Of a stretch of DNA of 58,597 nt, positions 4,495 through 39,729 are shown piece by piece. Within the stretch, counting starts at the first letter, position 1. The number at the start of each line of letters is the position of its first letter. The stretch is taken from IMG/VR virus record IMGVR_UViG_3300045988_136606, positions 1-58,597 of that record. One strand, written 5' to 3'. The DNA is from a virus. The position numbers and the translations under genes were made by a program. The notes under the pieces are model-generated. The model saw only the letters and a program-made list of their open reading frames with translations. It had not been told where the DNA came from and ran no database searches.

Positions 4495-7400
4495 ATGAAT
4501 AAAAACTTATATATTTTAGACAACACGAAAAAACTGATAAAAATTATAAATACCATAAACACAATTAGTATAAAAGTATACGATGATACATATACCAGTG
4601 AACTTTTAACGGGGGCAGAAACTTACACTGCCTCTTTTAAAGTAAGTTATCAAGACCAACCAATATTTTTAGAAGGTAATTACATTGGATTTTATTGGCA
4701 AGATAATTTCAAATTGATGCAAATTAAGAAAACAACTAGTATTGAACATATAGACGACGTAACTATTACAGTTTATGCGGAGTTTATAGGAATTGAATTA
4801 TACAATAGTTATGTAGATAAATTTGTGGCAGACGGGAATGCAACAAAACTATTGGAAACTATATTAATGGATACTAATTACAAGGTAGGTTATGTAAGCC
4901 CTTCATTAGACCAGGAAGCCTTTAGGGTAGAAGCTACAGAGGTTACTAGTGTATATTCAGTAATACAGAATGCTACTTCAATTTTATACGAGTGTGAGTG
5001 GCAATTTAGAACAGTTCCAGTGGATATAAAACGTGGTAAATTTAATTTTTATGTAGACTGTTTTGCAAGTGGAGAGCGTGGCACTAAAAGATATAAACGT
5101 TTTGAAAGTGATAGAAATAGTTATGGCATGAAACGTACTGGAGATATTACAAACTTTTGCAGTGGTATTATACCAATAGGAAAAAATGGACTTACTATTA
5201 GTAATGTAAAATGGGAAAAAGAACAAGGAGATCCAACGGATAAACCCCTTGGTCAGAACTACATTTTCGATGAGAAAGCACATGAAATGCTTAATAATGG
5301 TGGCAAATACGTATTAATGAAATACAAAAGTGATGCTGATGATATATACACATTAATACACGAAGGGTATGTCAAATTAAAGGAATTAAACAAGACTAAA
5401 TTTAGTTATGAAATTCCTATATATATGAATGAAAGAGATTATGAGGAGATTGATGTCGGTGATACTAACTATGTTGTGAGTAGAAAATTCAACCCACCAA
5501 TTCAATTAGAGGCACGTATTACAAAGTTTGAAATTAGTTTTACAGATAGAACTAAGAACAGTGTAACACTAGGTAACTACAAGGAAATACGTAGCAAAAT
5601 GAAATCTTTAAATAAAGATGACATAGTTAATGATGTTGTAGACATTATAAAGAAACATGGTAAATTAACCGCTAGTGATTTACTTGCTATTAGAAATTAT
5701 CTAAATCAATTAGGAGTGGATAAAAAATTAATTGATAAACTTATTAAACAATATACAGATAAAGTAGTACCTGACCCAGTAAAACCTGGAGATGATACAA
5801 GTAAAATAAGTGAGGACACAGAAGATTATAGAGCAATAAATATAAAGAAAATAGACAATGGATTATGGATAGGAGATAGTAGAATTCATGACTGTATAAA
5901 ATACAAATGTGGAGAAATAAAAGGTAAAACACCTACTACTCAACCACAACCTGATAAAAAAGAAGATAGTAGTAAAACTGCAAAACAATACAAAGCAGCC
6001 GTAGATTATTATGCAGGATTTGGACTAGGTAAATGGAGTGATAAATATAGCGATTTAAAAAATATGAGAAGTAAATCTAATCATTGGAAAATATATGCGC
6101 CAGTTGAATATTATAGTAAAAAGTTTGGACTTGACCCTCAACTAGTTTATGCGATGATATACGCTGAGTCTAGTGCTAATCCATATGATGCTACCAAAGA
6201 CTCAACAGGTGGATATGGACTTATGCAGTGTGAGAGAGGTACTTATTTCAATAAGAAGATGAAAATAAAATACTTAGATGGTAAAGTTGAGTACTTTACT
6301 CCATCTTATTCTAATATGAAGCCTAAATCTTGTGGAACTAAAATAATAAATGGTGAAAAAGTAGATAGAGCTATATGTAATCAAATAATGTTTGGTTGTA
6401 ATGAACTTAGAAAATCATTAAAACGTTTTAAATGGAACATATTTGCAGCCTTGGTTGGTTATAACTTCGGTCTATATGGATGTGATTTATTGATATGTAG
6501 ATACGTTGCAATGAAAAATGGTTTATCTTGGGTCAATAAATATGGATATACAGTGCAAAGTTCAAAAGTACAATCTTTATATTTCAAAGAATTAGAGAAA
6601 GGTACTGCTGCATGGGCCGGTGGTAGAAAATGGTATGTAGAAAATAAACACGCCGGAACTGCTACTAATATTGAATGTTACCTTAGATGGTATAAGGTAG
6701 TAGACGGTCAATTGCCATATTGTATTGATGAAAAAGGTAAAAAAAGAGGTTATGGAGCAATAAAACCAGGCACATCAAATAAGAGTGCCGAAGCTACTGC
6801 CGTATCTACAGAGTCTTCAATGACTAGAGCAGCAAGTGTTAAAAATGCACCTACATGGAGCATAAGTGATAACACTACTACTAAAAAAGGCGTTGCAGAA
6901 AATGTAAGAAAGAAAATAGTAAATAAAGCTAGAGAGATAGCAGAATTACATCAAAAGTATAAAAAAGCTACATATTATGCAGGAGCTTGTATTTATGATG
7001 ATAGTAAAAGACATAGAGTAAGTGGAACTATAAATGGTATTAAAAATCCATACTGTTATGTGTGTTCTTCTCTTAGTTCATGTGCTTACTTATATGCAGG
7101 TCTTAGAAGTGTAACTGCCAAATATGGTGGAGCCAACTGTTCATATGGGACTTTAGTTAAAAGTGCTTGTAAATACAGTGGCTATACATTAAAGAAACTA
7201 ACAAGTACAACAATTAATGAATTACTACCTGGGGATTTAATAATGTTAAGTAATGCCACAGTTCCATCAAGTGTAACCGTTAGTTGGGCATCAAAGTCTG
7301 GAGGTTCCTCTAAATATGCTAGTGGTGGCACACATCACGTAGTAGTATATTGCGGAAAAGTAAATGGTAAACGTATGATAGCTCATGCTAGTGCACCTTA

Positions 7401-9048
7401 TAAATGGCCTAGAGCTATAAGATATGAAGACATGAGTATAACATATAGTTCAAGAGGTAGTATGACTCACTGGTATACACATGGCATAATACTTAGACCT
7501 TGGGACTTAGCAAGGGCGGACAAGGAAGCCAAAGTTAAAAACCAATCAGCTACTAAGCCAACACCACCAAAAGACATAGTAGACGACCCAGATGGTTCAA
7601 CTTATGAAGTTACATTTAAAGGACTTAACAGTGCAGCTCCTAAAGACTTTGTAGAAGGTGGAAAACTTATTACTAATATCACTGTCAATGGAGTTACTGA
7701 CAAAACTCCATATCCTAAGACTGTCAGTCATGTAATGCTAGCATTTGGAGTTCCTGCACTAGGGGATAATGTGGATAACGTTGTGGAAGATTATAAATCT
7801 CTTATAAAAGCCTTACTAAAGAAATACCCTAAAAAGCCTATATTTGTATGTGAGGAAGCTCGTTTAAGAAGTTCTCAATCAGGCAACTACAAACAAATGA
7901 ATGAAGCAATAGACTCACTTAATAATATGATGTTGGATTACTGCAATAAAACAAAATACGTAATATTCTTAAGAAAACCAAAGGATATGTGTGATACCAC
8001 TGATAAATATTACTGGCTTAGCAGCTTAACTACCGACGGGTATAGAATGAAGGATAAAACATCTACTCAGACTTATTATAAAGAGTATAAGAAAAAGATA
8101 TTATACTTTGGTGAGGGAGCAGAATGGGAGAGCGACAGTGTTACAAGTAATAAAATGTTAGACAGTCAACGTGTATACTCTTATAATAAACCACTAACAA
8201 AATTACAATTTAGAGTGCCGGCAACTTCATCAACAAATTACAATGATAGTTACTATGCACGTATTGTATTCACTACTGCAAAAGGATTCAAGCTAATACA
8301 ACCTGGCACAGTATACCTAGAAGGTGTGGACTGTAAGAATGGAGTACTATTACCTAAAGTAGGTACTACTTATATTGTATCTGTGTATTATAATCCCGAC
8401 ACTACAATAAGTGACAAGCCGTATTTAGGAAGTGTTGGAGCTAAGAAAAAAGGCACTAATTATGCACAACCATTATTTAAATATTCAGCTGATCTAGTTA
8501 AAATTGCTAATAGTTACTATAATAATAATAGTAAGTTCAGTTATAATAGTACAACTCCCGCAGATTTCAAGAATCCATCCGAAAACATTAGTAAATGGAA
8601 GGTCAACAATAAATATCAAATAGATGATAGCTGTTTTCTTAACTACGTATTAACAGGTTGGACTTATGAAAAATCTCCTTTTGGTAACGAGAAAAAGACT
8701 GATAATAATAGAAATAATAGTGTTAGCTGGGCTATACCAAGTACTAGAAATGAAGCTAATATAGGAAAATATTTTGTACAGAAAAACTGGGTAGTAGATG
8801 TAGCAGATTTAGAAACATTTAAGAATCTAGCAATTGGAGATATAATATTCATGGACGCTGACAGTAAAAATAATGGTGAATTCATGGCGATATCACATAC
8901 TGCCATAGTAATAGAAAAAGATAAAGCTGGAGATTATGTGGCACTTGAATGTACTAATGGATTATCAAGTGGCGTATTTAGGAAAGTGAAAGTAAAAAAC
9001 CTTGCGAGTAAAAATATATTATTTGTAGGCAGATTTATGATAGGATAG
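4495..9048 (+). CDS. Tail-associated lysin (Tal): SLT lytic transglycosylase plus two NlpC/P60-like domains
   Basis: 1517 aa following Dit. SLT motif YAESSANPYDATKDSTGGYGLMQ. Cys/His peptidase-like segments (CSSLSSCAYLYAGL...HHVVVYCG, and C-terminal DDSCFLNYV...GDIIFMD...SHTAIVIEK). RBS taggagg. Confidence 0.75.
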   Translation: MNKNLYILDNTKKLIKIINTINTISIKVYDDTYTSELLTGAETYTASFKVSYQDQPIFLEGNYIGFYWQDNFKLMQIKKTTSIEHIDDVTITVYAEFIGIELYNSYVDKFVADGNATKLLETILMDTNYKVGYVSPSLDQEAFRVEATEVTSVYSVIQNATSILYECEWQFRTVPVDIKRGKFNFYVDCFASGERGTKRYKRFESDRNSYGMKRTGDITNFCSGIIPIGKNGLTISNVKWEKEQGDPTDKPLGQNYIFDEKAHEMLNNGGKYVLMKYKSDADDIYTLIHEGYVKLKELNKTKFSYEIPIYMNERDYEEIDVGDTNYVVSRKFNPPIQLEARITKFEISFTDRTKNSVTLGNYKEIRSKMKSLNKDDIVNDVVDIIKKHGKLTASDLLAIRNYLNQLGVDKKLIDKLIKQYTDKVVPDPVKPGDDTSKISEDTEDYRAINIKKIDNGLWIGDSRIHDCIKYKCGEIKGKTPTTQPQPDKKEDSSKTAKQYKAAVDYYAGFGLGKWSDKYSDLKNMRSKSNHWKIYAPVEYYSKKFGLDPQLVYAMIYAESSANPYDATKDSTGGYGLMQCERGTYFNKKMKIKYLDGKVEYFTPSYSNMKPKSCGTKIINGEKVDRAICNQIMFGCNELRKSLKRFKWNIFAALVGYNFGLYGCDLLICRYVAMKNGLSWVNKYGYTVQSSKVQSLYFKELEKGTAAWAGGRKWYVENKHAGTATNIECYLRWYKVVDGQLPYCIDEKGKKRGYGAIKPGTSNKSAEATAVSTESSMTRAASVKNAPTWSISDNTTTKKGVAENVRKKIVNKAREIAELHQKYKKATYYAGACIYDDSKRHRVSGTINGIKNPYCYVCSSLSSCAYLYAGLRSVTAKYGGANCSYGTLVKSACKYSGYTLKKLTSTTINELLPGDLIMLSNATVPSSVTVSWASKSGGSSKYASGGTHHVVVYCGKVNGKRMIAHASAPYKWPRAIRYEDMSITYSSRGSMTHWYTHGIILRPWDLARADKEAKVKNQSATKPTPPKDIVDDPDGSTYEVTFKGLNSAAPKDFVEGGKLITNITVNGVTDKTPYPKTVSHVMLAFGVPALGDNVDNVVEDYKSLIKALLKKYPKKPIFVCEEARLRSSQSGNYKQMNEAIDSLNNMMLDYCNKTKYVIFLRKPKDMCDTTDKYYWLSSLTTDGYRMKDKTSTQTYYKEYKKKILYFGEGAEWESDSVTSNKMLDSQRVYSYNKPLTKLQFRVPATSSTNYNDSYYARIVFTTAKGFKLIQPGTVYLEGVDCKNGVLLPKVGTTYIVSVYYNPDTTISDKPYLGSVGAKKKGTNYAQPLFKYSADLVKIANSYYNNNSKFSYNSTTPADFKNPSENISKWKVNNKYQIDDSCFLNYVLTGWTYEKSPFGNEKKTDNNRNNSVSWAIPSTRNEANIGKYFVQKNWVVDVADLETFKNLAIGDIIFMDADSKNNGEFMAISHTAIVIEKDKAGDYVALECTNGLSSGVFRKVKVKNLASKNILFVGRFMIG

Positions 9049-18089: not shown

Positions 18090-18362
18090 ATGTTAGATTT
18101 AAGTGTTATAAGTAATTATTTAGTAGTTGCAGTAATATTAGTATGTTGTTGTATAGGATATGTAATAAAAACAAGTTTAGATTTTATACCTAATAAATAT
18201 ATACCATTAATCATGGCCTGCATAGGAGTGGTTTTAAACTACTTTATAGCAGGCTATTTTAATGTAAATGTATTACTAGGAGGAATGTTGAGCGGTTTAA
18301 GTTCTGTAGGACTTCATCAAGCTTTTAAAAATTTAATTGAAAATAAAGAAGGTGATAAATAA
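18090..18362 (+). CDS. Holin
   Basis: 90 aa with 2-3 TM helices and a charged C-terminus. Directly precedes, and overlaps the start of, the endolysin gene. Confidence 0.7.
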   Translation: MLDLSVISNYLVVAVILVCCCIGYVIKTSLDFIPNKYIPLIMACIGVVLNYFIAGYFNVNVLLGGMLSGLSSVGLHQAFKNLIENKEGDK

Positions 18363-19240
18363 TGAAAACTCAAGGTGGTTTTACCTTACTTGAAAATGAA
18401 AAGGATGTTAAAAATTGGCTTAATAAACAAAAGGTAACTAGAACAATAACAAAACTACAAGTACATCATATGGACTTACCTAACTACAGTACTTGGGAAA
18501 AGACAGATAAAAAAGTATTTGCAGAACCACATTTTGGCAGAACTCAATCATTAGATAGTTATGGAAAATCTACATGGCATGATAGTGACGGGCATGGACA
18601 TTTTATAGCTCAGCACTTCAATGTATTTCCAGACGGCAAAATCACTACAGGAAGAAATCTTAATTCTACTCCAATAGGAATTAGAAAATGGAACACAAAT
18701 GCTATATGTATAGAAATATATGGTTGTTTTGATAAAGGCCACGATAAAATGACATCTGCACAAAAGAAGGCAGTAATATATCTTTATGGTGAGTTGTGTA
18801 AGAGATTTGATATCCCAGTTAACACTTCTCATATAAGACCGCATTGTTGGTTTACTGCTGGAGGAACTTATTTAGGCAAATATAATCCTTCAAGAAGTGC
18901 TAAAACTTGTCCAGGTACTGCATTCTGGGGATATGGATGTTCTCCAGATGGCTTCAGTCACTTCATTAAAGATGTAAAAAACTATGTAGATGGTAAAAAA
19001 GCAGAACCTAAGAAGGAAGAAACCAAGGCAACTACAAAGAAATTCCAAATACAAACTTTAGATAAATTAAATGTTCGTAAAGTGGCAGATTGGAATGCTT
19101 CAGCAGTTACTACAGTCAAGAAAGGGCAAATATTGGATGTGGTTGCTGAAGTATCACCTAAGAATGGATCTACAAAAATGTATAAACTTGAAAGTGGACT
19201 TTATATAACTGCATCTGAAAAATATGTAAAGAAAGTATAA
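18362..19240 (+). CDS. Endolysin: N-acetylmuramoyl-L-alanine amidase (Amidase_2/PGRP type) with a C-terminal SH3b domain
   Basis: Motifs QVHHMDLPN and CPGTAFWG. C-terminal SH3-like FQIQTLDKLNVRKVADW...GQILDV. Position after the holin. Confidence 0.8.
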   Translation: MKTQGGFTLLENEKDVKNWLNKQKVTRTITKLQVHHMDLPNYSTWEKTDKKVFAEPHFGRTQSLDSYGKSTWHDSDGHGHFIAQHFNVFPDGKITTGRNLNSTPIGIRKWNTNAICIEIYGCFDKGHDKMTSAQKKAVIYLYGELCKRFDIPVNTSHIRPHCWFTAGGTYLGKYNPSRSAKTCPGTAFWGYGCSPDGFSHFIKDVKNYVDGKKAEPKKEETKATTKKFQIQTLDKLNVRKVADWNASAVTTVKKGQILDVVAEVSPKNGSTKMYKLESGLYITASEKYVKKV

Positions 19241-19967: not shown

Positions 19968-20459
19968 TTATTTAATATGTTTTTCTAATCTGTTTATTTC
20001 TTTTTTCATTCTAGCTATTTTCTTTTCATTTGTTGTATTTTCTATCTTTTTTTCCAACTTTTCTATTTTGTTTATAAATATATGATTATTTGAACTATTA
20101 TTCCAAGTTTCTTTAATGTTATCAGTAAAACTATATTCTTTTTCTTGTGTAGATGTATCACCCTTTTTATATTTCTTGTATTCTTCTTTAGTTAGAGTGT
20201 ATTTAGTTTTACAGTTCTCACATTCTACAATTGCCCCAGCAGTTAAAGATGATATAATACCAAGTACTATAAATACAATTCCTATTAGAAATGCAAGTGG
20301 TGCACCTATCCAGCCTATAATTGGTATCCAAAGTAAACAACCTCCTGCTAACCACAATATAGCCCCTGCACTAAAGAATATACTTGATGCAGATTTTATA
20401 GATGCTTGTTTACCGCACTTAGGACATTCAATATAAGATTTATTTTTTACTTCATTCAT
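19968..20459 (-). CDS. Membrane protein with a split zinc ribbon (LITAF-like topology) and a C-terminal coiled coil
   Basis: CPKCGK ... about 60 hydrophobic residues ... CENCKTKY. RBS aaggggga. Confidence 0.55.
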   Translation of the reverse strand: MNEVKNKSYIECPKCGKQASIKSASSIFFSAGAILWLAGGCLLWIPIIGWIGAPLAFLIGIVFIVLGIISSLTAGAIVECENCKTKYTLTKEEYKKYKKGDTSTQEKEYSFTDNIKETWNNSSNNHIFINKIEKLEKKIENTTNEKKIARMKKEINRLEKHIK

Positions 20460-20534
20460 GTTAACATCCCCCTTAATAATTTATATTTTAGAATTCTATT
20501 TTATTTGACAATTTCCTCTTTGTAGACTATACTA

Positions 20535-20804
20535 TCATTTACAATATTTTGGTTCAAATGATAATGTATATGGATTTAATCCCATAATAAAAAACTCAAT
20601 AACTGGTGATGGATTTTTAGCATATATTCCAACTGTATATGAAGTATGATTACGATGTTTAAAATACCTTTCTATTTTATATTTAAGACCAACATTAGGG
20701 AATGTTTTTTGAAATATCTCAGCCTCTTTTTTTAAGTTTTCAAGTTTATCATCTCCACTAAAATAAATATACGTAACATTTTTTAATCTGCTCATGAATA
20801 ACAA
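20535..20804 (-). CDS. Hypothetical protein (89 aa) immediately downstream of the RuvC nuclease gene
   Basis: Same strand, 9 nt after the nuclease stop, with a purine-rich aaagggg upstream. No recognisable motif. Confidence 0.4.
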   Translation of the reverse strand: MLFMSRLKNVTYIYFSGDDKLENLKKEAEIFQKTFPNVGLKYKIERYFKHRNHTSYTVGIYAKNPSPVIEFFIMGLNPYTLSFEPKYCK

Positions 20805-20813
20805 CCCCTTTAT

Positions 20814-22025
20814 TTATTTTATAAATTTTTCACTTCTAGCTATATTAATACTTGCATTATGGTCAGCGTTTAATTCAAATCCACATTCAGTACACTTGAA
20901 TTTTTCTTGAGTTTGTCTATTATCCTTATCAATATGACCACATATGCAACAAGTTTGAGAAGTATAAGCTGGGTCTATATATCTTACTGTTATTCCAACT
21001 CTTTCAGCTTTATACTCTACCATATTTTGTAACTCATAATAACTCCAATTTCTAAGTAATTTATCGCCAAATCCATCCTTTGTAAGTTTTTCCATGTTTA
21101 TAAACTCACATTGATGTTTTATTGCAAAATCTACTATCTTTTTAGATAGTTGATGATTATAAGTTTTAGCCCAGTTTCTTTCTTTGTCTTTTAACCTATT
21201 TAGTGCTTGTGTTTTTTTAGTACGTCCTTTACCACCTTTTGTAAGTTTTAAAGCCTGTTGTAAATTTCTTGCTCTTTGTTGCATTTGCTCTCTAACTTTC
21301 ATAAAGTCATTAATACTTCCTAAATGTTCTCTTTTGTATGTATCATCATTTAAGCATACATAAGCTGGATATTTAATTCCTAAGTCAACACCTAATACTC
21401 TACCTTCTACAAAGTTCTTTTTAGGTGTATAAGGTATATCTAATGTTAAGTTAAGTATTAGGTTATTATTTTTATCAAAGCATAAACTTGACTGCATTAC
21501 CTTATATTCTTTGTCTATTACCTTGTGCAATGTATGTTGCAACTCTATGCTATTTTCTTTTCTTTTAGTTGCTCCTAAGACAACTTTGAATATTATTTTA
21601 TTTACCCATTTTATTAGTATGTCATCGCCTTCATACATGAATTTTAAATCTCTTCCACGTGTCATAAGAGGATAATTTCTCTTATAGTTTGTTATAGTTC
21701 TTTCCCCTTTAGCTAATCCATTTTTTAATGATGTTTTAAAATCTTTCTTTACTCTTTGCGTTATAGATGATTTAGTATCAATACCAGTACCAAAAGCAAT
21801 TCCTTCGAAAAGTGGATTACTATTGGTTAAACTCTTTTGTGCATTCTTGAATGTATCAGATTTAATGTCTCTATTGCTTTCTAAGTATGCACTGCTTAAT
21901 ATTCCCATTGCTAAGTTAAGTCCTTGATATTGAGCATATTGGCTATCTCTTATGAATTTATAGCCTTGTTTTCTTTCTTCGTCAGTTCCTATTACTGTTA
22001 ATTTTATTTTTCTTACTGTAATCAT
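20814..22025 (-). CDS. Miniature RuvC/zinc-finger RNA-guided-nuclease-like protein (Cas12f-like / TnpB lineage), 403 aa
   Basis: RuvC-I VLGVDLGIKYPA, RuvC-II FINMEKL, Zn finger CCICGH...CTECG, RuvC-III NADHNASINIA. GGKGRTKKTQALNRLKDK and TITNYKRNYPL resemble my recollection of Cas12f1/Cas14 rather than canonical TnpB. RBS aaggagg at 22033-22039. Confidence 0.75.
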   Translation of the reverse strand: MITVRKIKLTVIGTDEERKQGYKFIRDSQYAQYQGLNLAMGILSSAYLESNRDIKSDTFKNAQKSLTNSNPLFEGIAFGTGIDTKSSITQRVKKDFKTSLKNGLAKGERTITNYKRNYPLMTRGRDLKFMYEGDDILIKWVNKIIFKVVLGATKRKENSIELQHTLHKVIDKEYKVMQSSLCFDKNNNLILNLTLDIPYTPKKNFVEGRVLGVDLGIKYPAYVCLNDDTYKREHLGSINDFMKVREQMQQRARNLQQALKLTKGGKGRTKKTQALNRLKDKERNWAKTYNHQLSKKIVDFAIKHQCEFINMEKLTKDGFGDKLLRNWSYYELQNMVEYKAERVGITVRYIDPAYTSQTCCICGHIDKDNRQTQEKFKCTECGFELNADHNASINIARSEKFIK

Positions 22026-22054
22026 AATGAAACCTCCTTATTAATATAAAATAC

Positions 22055-22541
22055 ATTTACATACTACTTAGTTGATAGCTAACGCAAATAAGTAAGATGT
22101 GAGTTATATTCAGATGCATCATTTACATATCACATAGTTAATAGTTAACAACTTGCCAACTCCTCTATTACTAAAAATATATGCTTATTTACATACCACT
22201 TAGTTAATATGAAATACCTAAATTTTCATCTAAGCACTTATAACCTGTCGAATTTACATACCACTTAGTTAATATGAAATATATCCTTCTAAACTCTCTA
22301 CTATATAATCTCCAATATTTACATACCACTTAGTTAATATGAAATTATTTTAGATTCTTCTTCTTGATACTTATTGAATATAATTTACATACTACTTAGT
22401 TAATATGAAATTGTCCTTTTCTTCTACAATGATAATATCTGTCATTTCATTTACATACTACTTAGTTAATATGAAATTATCCTAAATATTTCTTAATTAC
22501 TGACTTAATAATATTTACATACTACTTAGTTAATATGAAAT
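22055..22541 (-). CRISPR. CRISPR array: 6 well-conserved plus 2 degenerate 29-nt repeats, with 35-37-nt spacers
   Basis: Repeats start at 22055 and 22121 (degenerate) and at 22187, 22252, 22317, 22383, 22449 and 22513. Plus-strand unit ATTTACATA[C/T]CACTTAGTTAATATGAAAT, minus strand ATTTCATATTAACTAAGTGGTATGTAAAT. The degenerate copies lie at the low-coordinate end, which implies the leader is at the high-coordinate side and transcription is on the minus strand. Confidence 0.9.
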
Positions 22542-22975
22542 CCTAAAATTAATTTAAGTAATTCCAATGTATTCCTTTATATCAAGTGATATATTATGCA
22601 GTGTACTTATGATAGCGCCTTATCTAAATGATATGTAAACACTTAAAGTTAAGTAGTTTCAAGTGATACGATTATTTATGAGTTTTATGTCGCTCACTGC
22701 AATTTATATAAATTAACTAAGTGATTTTCCGAGTGAATAAGAAGAATATTAGTTTACACCCATTCTTTTTAATCTTATTCCTCAGACTTAGGACGGTAAA
22801 TCGCCCTCATAAGATTTTTATTAAGTTTTCAAAGAGCTTGTCTTGTTTGATTTCTTATTGTTACTATTATAATAGCACCATTGCTATCATAATGCAAGCA
22901 CTTTTATTTATTTTTATTGAAATATTTTTAAAATGCTATCACTATGCTATAATAGAAATAAAAAGGAGTGATTTT
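22542..22975 (-). promoter_or_regulatory. CRISPR leader and/or candidate non-coding RNA region with repeat-derived fragments
   Basis: About 430 nt with no credible ORF. 22712-22723 ATTAACTAAGTG is the exact reverse complement of the repeat core. 22632-22655 carries further repeat-like pieces. Confidence 0.4.
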
Positions 22976-23131
22976 ATGGCTTTAAAAGAAAACATGACTA
23001 GAATAACAGTTAATATTGATAAAGATAAATATGAAAAAGTAAAAGAAATGGCAATGAAAGAGGGAAGAGCAGTAAGTAATTACATAAATTTTTTAATAGA
23101 TAAAGAAATAAAAAAGAACCAAGAGAAGTAA
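22976..23131 (+). CDS. Ribbon-helix-helix (CopG/Arc-like) DNA-binding protein, 51 aa
   Basis: RBS aaaaggagtg. MALKENMTRITVNIDKDKYEKVKEMAMKEGRAVSNYINFLI is a typical RHH pattern. The upstream part of tracked ORF 22721-23131 is judged non-coding. Confidence 0.6.
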   Translation: MALKENMTRITVNIDKDKYEKVKEMAMKEGRAVSNYINFLIDKEIKKNQEK

Positions 23132-23152
23132 TTTCCCTTGGCTCTTTTATTA

Positions 23153-23359
23153 TTAACAACTATAATATTTATTTTCTATATTATTGTATCTCTTTAGAAG
23201 AATATCATTTTCTCCCCAAAATCTTGCTTCTACTTGGTCAATATCAACTTTTTCTTTACAAATTTCTCTAAATAGATTAATTGCACTTACATAATCAGTC
23301 CAACCACTATATAGTTCTAAACCTTCATTATTTATCCAACTAACTTGAAAATTATTCAT
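23153..23359 (-). CDS. Hypothetical protein (68 aa)
   Basis: Start abuts the upstream small ORF (TAAATAAATG), whose GGAGGG serves as its RBS. Confidence 0.45.
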   Translation of the reverse strand: MNNFQVSWINNEGLELYSGWTDYVSAINLFREICKEKVDIDQVEARFWGENDILLKRYNNIENKYYSC

Positions 23360-23899: not shown

Positions 23900-24076
23900 A
23901 CAAAAGAAAAAGCCGAGAACGGATATCTCAGGCTTTTTTATTATGTTAAAATAGAATTTTTTCTATTATATCTAGAGCAATAACACACCCAAACCAAAAT
24001 ATAGCTTCACTCATTATAATTCACCTACTTGCGATTTTGTGTAATCTTATTATTTACAATTTAAGGAGGTTTATGT

Positions 24077-28692: not shown

Positions 28693-30213
28693 CTATATTG
28701 GTAATCTTAATTTTATATCAAGTTCAAATTTACCATTTCTAATTCCTTTTTCTTTATAGTATATAACCTCTTCTATTACTGATTTAAGTAATATATTTTT
28801 ATCTAATATATTTTGTGTATTTTTATAACTATTAATTATTTTCTCAACCCTTGGAATTAGTTCGGAATAATTTAAATCTATTTTCATTTCTTTTTCTATT
28901 AATTCTTTTAGATTATTAATTGCAGTTTCATTTTTTTCTGTTTTAACTCTTAATACATTAGTTCTTTCTAAATAAGTATCAATATCATAGACACCTCTTT
29001 CAAGAAAATCGTGTAATTTATTTTTTTGTTTTTGAAGTTCTATAGTTTCCTTTTCTAAAAGAGATAAAGTATGCTTAAGATTACTTATTCTATCATTATT
29101 ATTATCAGATATATCTTTTTTTAATATTTCATTTTGATATTCATTTAAAAACTGTTGCATATATCCCAAAATAGTATTTTCAACGCTTTCTAACTTTGAC
29201 GATGAATTTTTATTACAATGGGCACACTTTAAGAATAATACTATATCGTTATTTTTATAGGTTGATTTAGATACAATCATAGTATGATTACAACAAGCAC
29301 ACTTGATTAATCCAGCAAGAGGATTGATCATTTTTTTATTTTGTGATACAGAGGGAACTTGATTACCTTCTAAAATATTTTGTGCCAAATTAAACATATC
29401 CTCACTTATAATAGCTTGATGTCTACCTTTTGCATAAATTATTTTATCTTTTGAATTGACAATAGATTTAGTACCTTTTCTCTTTACTTTATTCCAGCTA
29501 ACATACCCACAATAAATGCTATTCTTTAAAATTCTTCTTATAGCTTGTTCTGAAAATGGTTTACCAGAATTAGTTTTAACGCCTATTGTATCTAAATATA
29601 CTTTTATTTTATAAGAACCATAATTTGATATATATAAGGCAAATATTTCTTTCACTATTGCTGCTTTATCTTCATCGATTATAAGTAACCTTTTCCCTTC
29701 TCTGTCATACTCAAACTTGTATCCAAAAGGAGCATTAGAGGCAATAAATTTTCCCTCTTCAATAGATTTTATTCGACCTCTTTGCATACGTTTAGTAATC
29801 ATTTTAAGTTCACGTCTAGCAAAGAATGACTTAAATTCAGTCATCTCTTCATCAAGTTCATTATTTAGATCATAAGTTTTATCTGGAGTAACAATTAAAG
29901 TGTTAGTTTCTTTAAAAGTATCCAAGATTAATCCTTGGTCCTGCATTCCTCCACGGCCTAAACGATCCAAATCCATACATAGCACAGCATCATACATATT
30001 ATTTCTAACTTCTTCTAATAGCTTTAACATCTTAGGTCTAGATGCTATACTTCCTCCAGATACTATTTCTTCATGTACTTCAATGATATCTAGATGTTGT
30101 TTTTTAGCAACTTCTAATAGAGTGCTTCTATGCCTTGCTAGTGTATCAGTATTTTCTCTTTTTTCTAATTCTTCGTCTTGACGGCTTTTGCGCAAGTACA
30201 TACATACTTTCAT
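28693..30213 (-). CDS. Large serine recombinase (integrase)
   Basis: N-terminal resolvase catalytic pattern YLRKSRQDE, a recombinase domain, a Cys-rich zinc ribbon (CACCNH...CAHC) and a C-terminal coiled coil. 506 aa. Confidence 0.85.
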   Translation of the reverse strand: MKVCMYLRKSRQDEELEKRENTDTLARHRSTLLEVAKKQHLDIIEVHEEIVSGGSIASRPKMLKLLEEVRNNMYDAVLCMDLDRLGRGGMQDQGLILDTFKETNTLIVTPDKTYDLNNELDEEMTEFKSFFARRELKMITKRMQRGRIKSIEEGKFIASNAPFGYKFEYDREGKRLLIIDEDKAAIVKEIFALYISNYGSYKIKVYLDTIGVKTNSGKPFSEQAIRRILKNSIYCGYVSWNKVKRKGTKSIVNSKDKIIYAKGRHQAIISEDMFNLAQNILEGNQVPSVSQNKKMINPLAGLIKCACCNHTMIVSKSTYKNNDIVLFLKCAHCNKNSSSKLESVENTILGYMQQFLNEYQNEILKKDISDNNNDRISNLKHTLSLLEKETIELQKQKNKLHDFLERGVYDIDTYLERTNVLRVKTEKNETAINNLKELIEKEMKIDLNYSELIPRVEKIINSYKNTQNILDKNILLKSVIEEVIYYKEKGIRNGKFELDIKLRLPI

Positions 30214-38754: not shown

Positions 38755-39729
38755 ATGAGTATCGATAAAAATATTGTTGAATTGTTTGGAAAGGCTCAAA
38801 ATGGCGATAGAGAGGCTGTAACAAGCATTGTTGAGGATAATATGGGGCTTGTATATAAGCAAGCAAAGAAATTCAAAGGTAAAGCAATAAGTTACGATGA
38901 TGCAATTCAGGTTGGGAGTCTAGGATTATTACATTCTATACAAAATTATGACCCAGAACTAGGAATAAAATTTTCAACTTATGCAACAAGCAATATAATA
39001 GGTAAAATAATGCATACTGTAAGAGATCATAGAGAAGATGTACCATTCAGAATTCCAAGAAAAAATTTTAATGAATATAGACAAATCAAGCAAATTAGAA
39101 AAGAATTCGAAAAAATGCAAAGAGAACCCACTCTAAAAGAAATGTCAGAAATTATGGGAATAACAATACAAGAAATTACAAAGACATTACATCTTATGGA
39201 GGGTAAACTTCCCATGGACAGCACAATGAAAGCATCTAAACATAAAACAAAGGCTGTAAAATTTTCAGAAACATTAGAGAGCAATAGCATATCAGAAGAC
39301 CAAATAATTTTCAAAATAGATATCCCTAATGCTATTAATAAGCTACCAGAAAGGGAAAAATTAGTAATAATAAAAAGATTCTACGAAGAAAAAAGTCAGT
39401 CAGAGATTGGAAAAGAATTACAAACAAGTCAAGCACAAATTCACAGAATAGAAAAAGGAGCATTAAAAAATCTAAAAGATATTTTGAACGGAAAGAATAT
39501 AGAAATATTGGACTTGGACAAGCTAGTAACTAGAAAACGCAGAGATATAGATGTAGTAACAACGGATTTAAGTTGTCTTACACAGAGACAAAAGAAGTGT
39601 GTTGATTTAGTATTTGGCAAAGGACTAACACAAGCTGAGGCAGGCAAAATATTAGGCGTGAGTAAACATAATGTATATGCAGCGATAACCGAAGCAATAA
39701 AAAAACTAGATAAAAAGAAAATTAGTTAA
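38755..39729 (+). CDS. Sigma-70 family RNA polymerase sigma factor with an extra C-terminal region-4-like HTH
   Basis: Region 2 DDAIQVGSLGLLHSIQNYDPELGIKFSTYATSNIIG. Region 4 LPEREKLVIIKRFYEEKSQSEIGKELQTSQAQIHRIE. A second HTH: LTQRQKKCVDLVFGKGLTQAEAGKILGVSKHNV. Confidence 0.75.
   Translation: MSIDKNIVELFGKAQNGDREAVTSIVEDNMGLVYKQAKKFKGKAISYDDAIQVGSLGLLHSIQNYDPELGIKFSTYATSNIIGKIMHTVRDHREDVPFRIPRKNFNEYRQIKQIRKEFEKMQREPTLKEMSEIMGITIQEITKTLHLMEGKLPMDSTMKASKHKTKAVKFSETLESNSISEDQIIFKIDIPNAINKLPEREKLVIIKRFYEEKSQSEIGKELQTSQAQIHRIEKGALKNLKDILNGKNIEILDLDKLVTRKRRDIDVVTTDLSCLTQRQKKCVDLVFGKGLTQAEAGKILGVSKHNVYAAITEAIKKLDKKKIS

Follow-up and report, generated by a model that had tools for sequence, protein, structure and literature searches.

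The virus-derived DNA analysed here (IMG/VR virus record IMGVR_UViG_3300045988_136606; the whole stretch of 58,597 nucleotides is called the window below) represents a temperate tailed phage of ~59 kb. On its minus strand, between positions 22877 and 20814, this phage of gut Clostridia very probably carries as cargo a type V-F1 CRISPR-Cas12f1 locus (CRISPR: short palindromic repeats that are clustered and regularly interspaced), which would work by the mechanism proposed below. The system is real and constitutes no new type of CRISPR system; it is a relative of characterised genome-editing enzymes. A first-pass annotation of the window had described a self-contained unit of array and nuclease of ~1.7 kb. 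The module is indeed compact, but the gene for a trans-activating CRISPR RNA (tracrRNA) upstream of the array had been missed, and the unit spans about 2.06 kb.

The effector gene cas12f1 (20814..22025, minus strand) is an open reading frame (ORF) that starts with ATG and encodes 403 amino acids (aa). The sequence has a ribosome-binding site, AAGGAGG, 7 nucleotides (nt) 5' of this start (22033..22039, minus strand). The protein contains the RuvC triad D214 (GVDLG), E312 (INMEKL) and D388 (NADHNAS) and the zinc-finger cysteines C359/C362 and C378/C381, which bears out the earlier description of an intact RuvC/zinc-finger nuclease; all of these residues are invariant when homologs as little as 56% identical are aligned. 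The same holds for D83, R123 and R125, the counterparts of D77, R117 and R119 of RhCas12f, which read the C-rich protospacer-adjacent motif (PAM) and the PAM-like tip of guide-RNA stem 2 (PMC13186708).

Comparison with profiles and with PDB chains places the protein in the Cas12f family rather than among ordinary TnpB proteins, as the first-pass annotation had suggested. The PADLOC Cas12f model PDLC01699 matches residues 1-403 with 495 bits (3.7e-149), the PADLOC model Cas12u3 (the old V-U3 model) scores 459 bits, and Pfam identifies a Cas12f1-like_TNB domain (3e-25). The top match among the PDB chain sequences was 9NZP (446 bits, full length), which is RhCas12f of Ruminiclostridium herbifermentans (PMC13186708), followed by 8HR5 (429 bits, full length), a 497-aa chain that was deposited as 'Transposase' and whose aligned sequence agrees with the CnCas12f1 sequence of PMC10090079. 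Other Cas12f structures scored 95-184 bits and ISDra2 TnpB scored 34 bits. A resemblance to AsCas12f had been noted before, which was right as to the family, but the nearest relatives are RhCas12f1 and CnCas12f1 instead (56% and 58% full-length identity, respectively). Both belong to a clostridial Cas12f1 clade with C-rich PAMs, i.e. RhCas12f1 (415 aa, PDB 9NZP), CnCas12f1 (497 aa, PDB 8HR5), Cs2Cas12f1 and ChCas12f1 (PMC10090079, PMC13186708), and for all four, DNA cleavage in human cells has been demonstrated (PMC10090079). In NCBIfam the broad TnpB-family model NF040570 was the sole passing model (220 bits), whereas IS200_TnpB and IS607_TnpB reached 77 bits against a cut-off of 425 and 56 bits against a cut-off of 350, respectively. 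The ratio of non-synonymous to synonymous substitution rates (dN/dS) is 0.13-0.17 versus homologs at 71-83% identity, and a length of 403-405 aa is kept in more than 100 diverged homologs; judged by these sequences, purifying selection on cas12f1 is strong and the gene is a functional-looking member of the clade. By the same comparisons, the nuclease is a genuine type V-F1 Cas12f1 of the C-rich-PAM clade and no transposon TnpB, and those defining traits of type V-F1 Cas12f1 that can be read from sequence appear to be present, the anti-repeat set apart.

The CRISPR array (22055..22541, minus strand) is co-directional with cas12f1 and lies right before it, with the last repeat ending at 22055, 29 nt ahead of the ATG. 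It consists of eight 29-nt repeats at a spacing of 64-66 nt and seven spacers of 35-37 nt. The six gene-distal repeats are near-identical (ATTTCATATTAACTAAGT[A/G]GTATGTAAAT, minus strand) and the two at the cas12f-proximal (trailer) end are degenerate, as is expected for the trailer of an array. The position of the array, the number of spacers, the degenerate last repeat and the ribosome-binding site were found as first annotated. The leader (22542..22616, minus strand) contains a conserved block, CTATCATAAGTACACTGCATAAT, and a leader-repeat junction ...TTACTTAAATTAATTTTAGG; the block is conserved in L001, L008, L010, L011 and L015 (related contigs and their loci are denoted by L-numbers). The repeats match the Rfam family CRISPR-DR14 at 31-37 bits, under its gathering score of 45. 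Over 56 nt, the last ~27 nt of the leader together with repeat 1 share 87.5% identity with the corresponding junction in the array of the C. difficile phage CDKM15, and the sibling repeat variant GTTTTATATTAACTAAGTGGTATGTAAAT (L008/L097 type) is identical in 28/29 positions to the array repeats of the C. difficile phages phiSemix9P1, CDKM15, phiCD24-1, phiCDHM19 and others. A full-text literature search for the repeat sequence gave no match.

The ~320 nt between the array and a divergent ribbon-helix-helix (RHH) gene hold the predicted tracrRNA gene. Its scaffold core (22713..22810, minus strand) aligns with the validated tracrRNAs of Rh and Cn Cas12f1, whose sequences were taken from PMC10090079 (Suppl. 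Data 1). In an alignment of these two with five related loci the elements GATTTA, AAG, TGAG and ACTCG are invariant, and compensatory double changes occur at 18 of the 26 pairs in the RNAalifold consensus. Folding of the 319-nt upstream region gave z = -2.86. Stem 1 is formed by 22807-22802 and 22795-22790 (minus strand), and its loop ATTTAC (22801-22796) exactly complements GTAAAT, with which the repeat ends at its 3' side; guide RNAs of Cas12f and TnpB typically have a pseudoknot partner of this kind, and the loop would be its equivalent. Stem 2 (22786-22728, minus strand) has a GG..C(C/U) tip, which appears to correspond to the PAM-mimic of RhCas12f (PMC13186708). After stem 2 come the conserved linker CACTCGGAAA (minus strand) and a first anti-repeat-like segment, ATCACTTAGTTAA (22725-22713). 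The full candidate tracrRNA (22617..22859, minus strand, ends approximate) runs from a 5' leader through the scaffold, a ~100-nt insertion that includes a degenerate pseudo-repeat (22698-22682, minus strand), and a hairpin (about 22667-22642, minus strand) to the best anti-repeat candidate, TTTACATATCATTTAGATAA (22639-22620, minus strand), an inverted repeat that is complementary to the repeat in 17/20 positions. This candidate directly follows the hairpin, as does the validated anti-repeat of Rh. The best RNAduplex site (about 22641-22619) has energies of -13.9 and -16.9 kcal/mol with two repeat variants, versus -10.9 +/- 2.0 for shuffles. In L001 and L008 both anti-repeat segments are conserved and each is complementary to the repeats of its own locus. 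On this comparative evidence the scaffold seems well supported. Rfam, which has no model for this tracrRNA, gave no match at gathering thresholds in the whole window and reported CRISPR repeats only over 20400-23200. Exact scans for the stem 1 motif returned only three viral and four metagenome contigs, since the motif varies.

A candidate promoter (22866..22897, minus strand) consists of TTGCAT (22897-22892) and the extended -10 element TGCTATTATAAT (22877-22866), with a predicted transcription start near 22859. It was absent from the list of a simple sigma-70 scan because the -35 element matches in 3/6 positions only. TGCTATTATAAT is retained in L001, L010, L011 and L015, even where the -35 region varies, and it is this conservation that points to promoter function. 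The block containing the promoter (23199-22852) is 96.8% identical to positions 8659-8313 of L070, where it precedes a different type V module. No terminator-like site was predicted from the upstream promoter through the array to the end of cas12f, which makes a single transcript of tracrRNA, leader, array and cas12f1 plausible.

A peculiar arrangement of the guide RNA region was observed in L012 (5549-5600) and in L013 and L014, in which Cas12f is 71% identical to that of the window. There the linker is followed by the anti-repeat ATCACATAGTT, an 11-nt loop and a repeat copy, which reproduces the last 13 nt of the repeat perfectly (GTGGTATGTAAAT) and is followed by a T-run. It resembles a fusion of the single-guide type that arose naturally, or else a first repeat left as a fossil. 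Positions 22725-22682 of the window (minus strand) hold a decayed counterpart (AGTGAGCGACATAAAAC).

The spacer content of these loci differs even between close relatives. The loci L010, L011 and L015, with 99% identical cas12f genes, hold different spacer sets, and so do L089 and L090, which share the tracrRNA motif. Near the gene-proximal end, loci have older spacers in common (e.g. L011 spacers 6/9 equal L015 spacers 5/12), spacer 3 of the window equals spacer 2 of L090, and some shared spacers occur in altered order. It follows that the arrays gain spacers and recombine.

Five independent protospacers emerged when 82 distinct spacers were compared by local BLAST with about 1.5 Mb of DNA from related phages. 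Spacer 7 of the window matches, in 29/30 positions over its first 30 nt, a gene adjoining the RHH gene in L069, L070, L081, L078 and L001, with the 5' flank CCA (CTA in L090). L010 spacer 4 matches L082 perfectly (5' flank CCT), L097 spacer 4 matches its own contig perfectly (36/36, L097 387-422, 5' flank CCA), L001 spacer 3 matches an intergenic site in the window (24019-24056, plus strand, 37/38, 5' flank ATA), and L015 spacer 2 matches the leader of an L001-type array (34/37, 5' flank TCA). The 5' flank is CCN at three of the five protospacers, in genomes of low G+C content, which is unlikely to occur by chance (the probability was roughly estimated to be about 1e-3 or lower). This motif is in agreement with the PAM 5'-CCD of RhCas12f1 and also with that of CnCas12f1 (PMC10090079), and the type I-B PAM of C. 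difficile is CCN as well (PMC4173771). BLAST of 57 concatenated spacers against GenBank phages found no true protospacers, the matches being due to a 47-nt pseudo-spacer derived from a RAGATH-18 RNA (see below); L015 spacer 10 shows a weak similarity (91%, E = 0.02) to a Bacillus phage integrase gene. Sibling phages seem to be what the spacers target (in two cases the CRISPR loci of such phages), which would support inter-phage exclusion and fits the role in inter-phage competition that had been proposed for the module.

At 24019-24056 the window phage is a target in its turn; the L001 phage's own version of this site differs at four positions. Competitors' CRISPR loci are targeted by L015 spacers 2 and 7 and by L090 spacers 3 and 5. 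One such spacer matches the leader adjoining repeat 1 of an L001-type array; another includes, along with adjacent sequence, the initial 17 nt of the repeat in reverse complement and was therefore acquired from inside another array.

How does a locus of this kind obtain its spacers? All 79 ORFs of at least 60 aa in the window were scanned against PADLOC and NCBIfam, and no Cas1-class, Cascade or TnpA-class family was found among the matches listed; cas2 and cas4 were likewise not among them, in line with the first-pass annotation. The spacer length of 35-38 nt fits type I-B, versus the ~20 nt needed by Cas12f, and the repeat family (CRISPR-DR14) and leader junction of type I-B suggest that the spacers are provided in trans by host I-B machinery. 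The most economical reading would be that Cas1-Cas2-Cas4 of a host type I-B system load the array in trans, and that the precursors of the CRISPR RNAs (crRNAs) could serve both Cascade and Cas12f. Borrowing of type I-B adaptation by V-F1 systems has been proposed in a 2024 preprint, from co-occurrence and shared PAMs (PAMPHLET, 10.1101/2024.04.09.587696).

The mechanism that we propose runs as follows. The promoter with its extended -10 element at 22877-22866 would transcribe the tracrRNA, the leader, the eight-repeat array and probably cas12f1 from the minus strand. The tracrRNA scaffold would pair with the 3' part of each repeat, the loop of stem 1 forming a pseudoknot with GTAAAT and the anti-repeat following after the PAM-mimicking stem 2. 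A Cas12f dimer (in type V-F1, an asymmetric homodimer bound to one guide RNA) is expected, from its homology to RhCas12f1 and CnCas12f1, to load this dual RNA and to recognise a 5' C-rich (CCN) PAM, and double-stranded DNA would be cut where the first ~20 nt of the spacer match. In a lysogen, the resident phage could in this way exclude sibling temperate phages, as the sequence matches suggest. New spacers would most likely come from the type I-B adaptation machinery of the host, in a phage in which cas1, cas2 and cas4 were not detected in the above scan, and arrays would probably also recombine between phages.

Several observations weigh against this proposal. The flanks of two of the five protospacers are not CCN (ATA and TCA). 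Of the spacers for which a search had been suggested in the earlier annotation, spacer 7 indeed matches sibling phages, but for the other six of the seven neither GenBank phages nor the ~1.5 Mb of DNA from related phages contained a match, and exact scans of IMG/VR were negative for spacers 2 and 5. The self-match of L097, which has a CCA PAM, lies ~2 kb upstream of its own array. If the system were constitutively active, a perfect self-target would be difficult to explain, except in a chimeric contig or with the system under control; L097 spacer 4 may represent either self-targeting or the chimeric assembly of co-existing variants. Within the window, the duplex of the anti-repeat TTTACATATCATTTAGATAA is only modestly stronger than chance. 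With two anti-repeat candidates the 3' end of the tracrRNA is ambiguous, the segment at 22725-22713 being at chance level (-11.2). The screen for Cas1, Cas2 and Cas4 covered the best 25 families per scan, and a weak Cas2 or Cas4 match may lie below these. Finally, both adaptation in trans and shared use of the array are what we infer from the sequences.

Three other explanations can be set against this one. The locus might be a decaying or non-cleaving relic, or it might have been repurposed for regulation, repressing genes of the phage itself or of the host. The degenerate terminal repeats, the perfect self-target with consensus PAM in L097 and the absence of the module from most sibling phages would agree with such a fate, as would the truncated remnants in two small IMG/VR contigs (L016 728-1056 and L017 5825-6153), in which an intact tracr-like scaffold is accompanied by just one repeat and cas12f is reduced to its last ~51 codons, and which we take for decayed versions of the locus. 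We consider this unlikely, as the catalytic triad is intact and invariant, the gene is under strong purifying selection with its length kept in the >100 homologs, near-identical phages differ in their arrays, and the spacers match competitors, not the carrier phage.

Alternatively, the array could be an orphan type I-B phage array that is used by the Cascade/Cas3 of the host alone, next to an unrelated or array-independent gene of the TnpB lineage. Repeat family, spacer length and leader junction are indeed those of the arrays in C. difficile phages without cas genes (PMC4173771), CCN is the type I-B PAM too, and a generic TnpB family is the sole NCBIfam model that passes. Nevertheless, the array adjoins a scaffold that is homologous to validated Cas12f1 tracrRNAs and whose loop complements the repeat end, whereas this scaffold motif was not found in the C. 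difficile phage arrays. Moreover, the validated Rh, Cn, Cs2 and Ch Cas12f1 use the same ...ATGTAAAT repeat family, and the linkage of tracr, array and cas12f is kept across diverged loci. This explanation is therefore very unlikely, even if host Cascade could use the array in addition. Despite its superfamily membership (NF040570) and the annotation of relatives as TnpB or transposase in databases, a transposon-type TnpB (IS200/IS605 or IS607) that had inserted beside the array, with its own omega-RNA and a role in transposon maintenance, is scarcely credible, since the IS200 and IS607 models stay far below their cut-offs, no TnpA-class family is among the matches listed, the nearest characterised proteins are CRISPR-guided Cas12f1 enzymes, and homology ends exactly at the stop codon with the next ORF 10 nt further on, leaving no conserved 3' omega-RNA or right end; the first-pass annotation had named element ends and a 3' omega-RNA as what would speak for a TnpB, and neither was found.

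The type V-F1 system of the window phage resembles Rh and Cn Cas12f1 in protein sequence (56-58% identity, with the RuvC, zinc-finger and PAM-reading D/R/R residues all shared), in the homologous stems 1 and 2 of the tracrRNA, in repeats that end in ...ATGTAAAT and in a locus without adaptation genes. Unlike the described Cas12f1 orthologs, the phage protein is slightly smaller (403 aa), tracr, array and cas12f follow one another in this order, with the array directly before the start codon, and ~100 nt are inserted into the predicted tracrRNA between its CACTCGGAAA linker and the probable anti-repeat. Those orthologs were mined from bacterial genomes, with no comment on a mobile context, whereas this one is carried by a complete temperate phage and is known from sequence alone.

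The arrays of C. difficile phages (CDKM15, phiSemix9P1, phiCD24-1 and others) share with the window the CRISPR-DR14 repeats, a similar leader junction, a site in the accessory region, spacers of ~36-37 nt aimed at related phages and the CCN PAM. These phages, which have no cas genes, are thought to use the type I-B system of the host, on whose Cas proteins they would depend entirely (Hargreaves et al. 2014, PMC4173771); they have neither an effector nor a tracrRNA-like motif, whereas the phage described here brings its own Cas12f1 and tracrRNA.

The TnpB proteins of IS200/IS605 and IS607 elements are similar in protein superfamily, size range and pseudoknotted guide-RNA scaffold; in contrast to these, the guides here come from a CRISPR array and a separate tracrRNA, and neither insertion sequence (IS) ends nor a 3' omega-RNA were found in the window, nor a tnpA among the family matches listed. 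Cas12j/CasPhi, Cas-lambda and the Thermus phage Cas12r (preprint) also combine a small RuvC effector and an array on a phage that has no adaptation genes, and are, like the Cas12f1 phage, presumed to act in competition with other mobile elements. They represent different Cas12 families, with weak PDB matches of at most 27 bits. CasPhi and Cas-lambda need no tracrRNA, whereas Cas12f1 depends on one and is found here on a phage of about 59 kb, not on a huge phage.

Plasmid-borne type IV-A3 is likewise an interference module on a mobile element, without cas1 and cas2 and with a repeat and PAM that match a type I system of the host; experimental support exists for its acquisition of spacers in trans from host type I-E (bioRxiv 10.1101/2023.06.23.546257). 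For the phage locus, unlike type IV-A3, acquisition in trans is suggested by array diversity, repeat and leader similarity and PAM. V-F loci have been reported in virus catalogues too. They have also been found on mobile elements, with enrichment on plasmids (PMC11656645). Our literature search found no paper describing this specific phage family.

The window thus adds a very small (403 aa) Cas12f1 from a C-rich-PAM clade that is already used in genome editing; its tracrRNA has been predicted, and natural sequence variants are numerous. The window also offers a natural case of how V-F1 loci without cas1 and cas2 get their spacers, with type I-B-like repeat, leader and PAM and with spacers that differ in near-identical phages, and of the role of phage-borne CRISPR, with spacers that point at sibling phages and their CRISPR loci. 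Its interest lies mainly in being a tractable example of trans-adaptation and phage-versus-phage CRISPR warfare, with the small ortholog as a further asset.

The window encodes portal, major head, head morphogenesis and tail proteins, and family matches identified an endolysin (18362-19240) and a large serine integrase (28693-30213); the locus lies between the lysis and lysogeny modules of a temperate phage, as had been stated earlier. A 324-aa SigF/SigG-like sporulation sigma factor (38755-39729, plus strand; NCBIfam SigB/F/G 3.8e-50, PHROG sigma factor 5.5e-67) is consistent with a spore-forming Firmicute as host. The order RHH gene, tracr, array, cas12f, small ORFs, endolysin/holin and tail fibre recurs in relatives, as seen in contigs from pig and human gut metagenomes and in IMG/VR viral contigs, many of which break at the array. 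A profile-based scan of IMG/VR found at least 43 viral contigs with relatives of the nuclease (29-99% identity); in 29 of the 43, a CRISPR array lies before or after the gene at a distance of up to about 350 nt. The module had been called unusual; with validated orthologs in the clade and with recurrent phage and prophage relatives that have arrays in IMG/VR, it is less so. Homologs with 56% identity are present on ~265-kb plasmids of Clostridium botulinum and C. sporogenes, where they are annotated as TnpB. Against GenBank phages, tblastn of the protein gave distant TnpB-like matches only (at most 37% identity) and megablast of the 3-kb locus gave no match, which indicates that no cultured phage in GenBank carries the module. 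It is variable cargo, as is clear from a neighbouring 760-aa gene: this gene was found in 17 IMG/VR loci (16 contigs) at 62-99% identity, and cas12f accompanies it in L077 alone.

The boundaries of the module relative to sibling phages are the promoter and the stop codon of the gene, with no IS ends. Homology to L005, L007, L008, L012 and L077 ends at the cas12f stop codon (20814), and the upstream homology to L070 ends at 22852, a few bases past the predicted start site. In L070 a different miniature type V module (6185-8360, minus strand) occupies the same site behind the same promoter, with sibling flanks that are 97% identical to the window; tblastn located such a module in L075 and L080 too. 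It consists of a RAGATH-18 RNA (Rfam 67 bits, 8243-8181), an anti-repeat (TTGTATATTGCACTTGT, complementary to ACAAATGTAATATACAA of the repeat), an array of about eight 37-nt repeats ending in ATTGAAAC, and then a 409-aa nuclease. The nearest matches of this nuclease are the PADLOC Cas12u4 model and PDB 8IAZ (248 bits), which is possibly an IS607-type TnpB. RAGATH-18 is known as the right-end RNA (reRNA) scaffold of IS607 TnpBs (PMC11061315). Its position 5' of a CRISPR array, in the manner of a tracrRNA, points to a split guide and to a Cas12n- or TranC-like module, which may surpass the Cas12f1 locus in novelty.

The two module types appear to have met before. In several Cas12f arrays the 47-nt 'spacer' at the end (AATTTACGTCTTTGGAGTGTCATACAAACTCAAGTAGCTATTAAG.A; L011 5463-5509 and the array ends of L089 and L090) is no spacer, as it is a fragment of the RAGATH-18 RNA of the alternative module. 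It matches L070 8205-8251 and L080 8044-8090, and also the RAGATH-18 of Staphylococcus phage 110, just 3' of a 'transposase' coding sequence. The fragment points to earlier recombination at the site that involved both module types.

A further-reaching interpretation, which we put forward tentatively and which as a whole is more doubtful than the assignment of the locus itself, is that the array serves as a shared currency. Being built on the repeat and leader of the host type I-B system, it would be refilled in trans by host Cas1-Cas2-Cas4, and its crRNAs would be read both by host Cascade and by the phage tracrRNA-Cas12f1, which use the same CCN PAM. As parts of the same conjecture, immunity against sibling phages might be kept where Cascade is absent or inhibited, the site at the conserved promoter might be a swap slot that holds Cas12f1 here and a TnpB/Cas12n-like nuclease with RAGATH-18 scaffold in L070, and phages might acquire spacers against each other's CRISPR loci.

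Two genes next to the CRISPR promoter are associated with this site. The 51-aa RHH (CopG-like) gene (22979-23131, plus strand) is divergent from the promoter and is kept with both module types; it may regulate the slot. Beyond it lies a small gene (23153-23359, minus strand) that varies between alleles and is the target of spacer 7 in sibling phages. On the other side, an 89-aa ORF (20535..20804, minus strand) begins 10 nt past the cas12f stop codon. It was considered as a component of the system and rejected: it has no significant family matches, and it is missing in L005 and L077, where the cas12f stop codon is directly followed by sequence homologous to positions 20549-20440 of the window. 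The ORF is probably a lineage-specific insertion outside the system.

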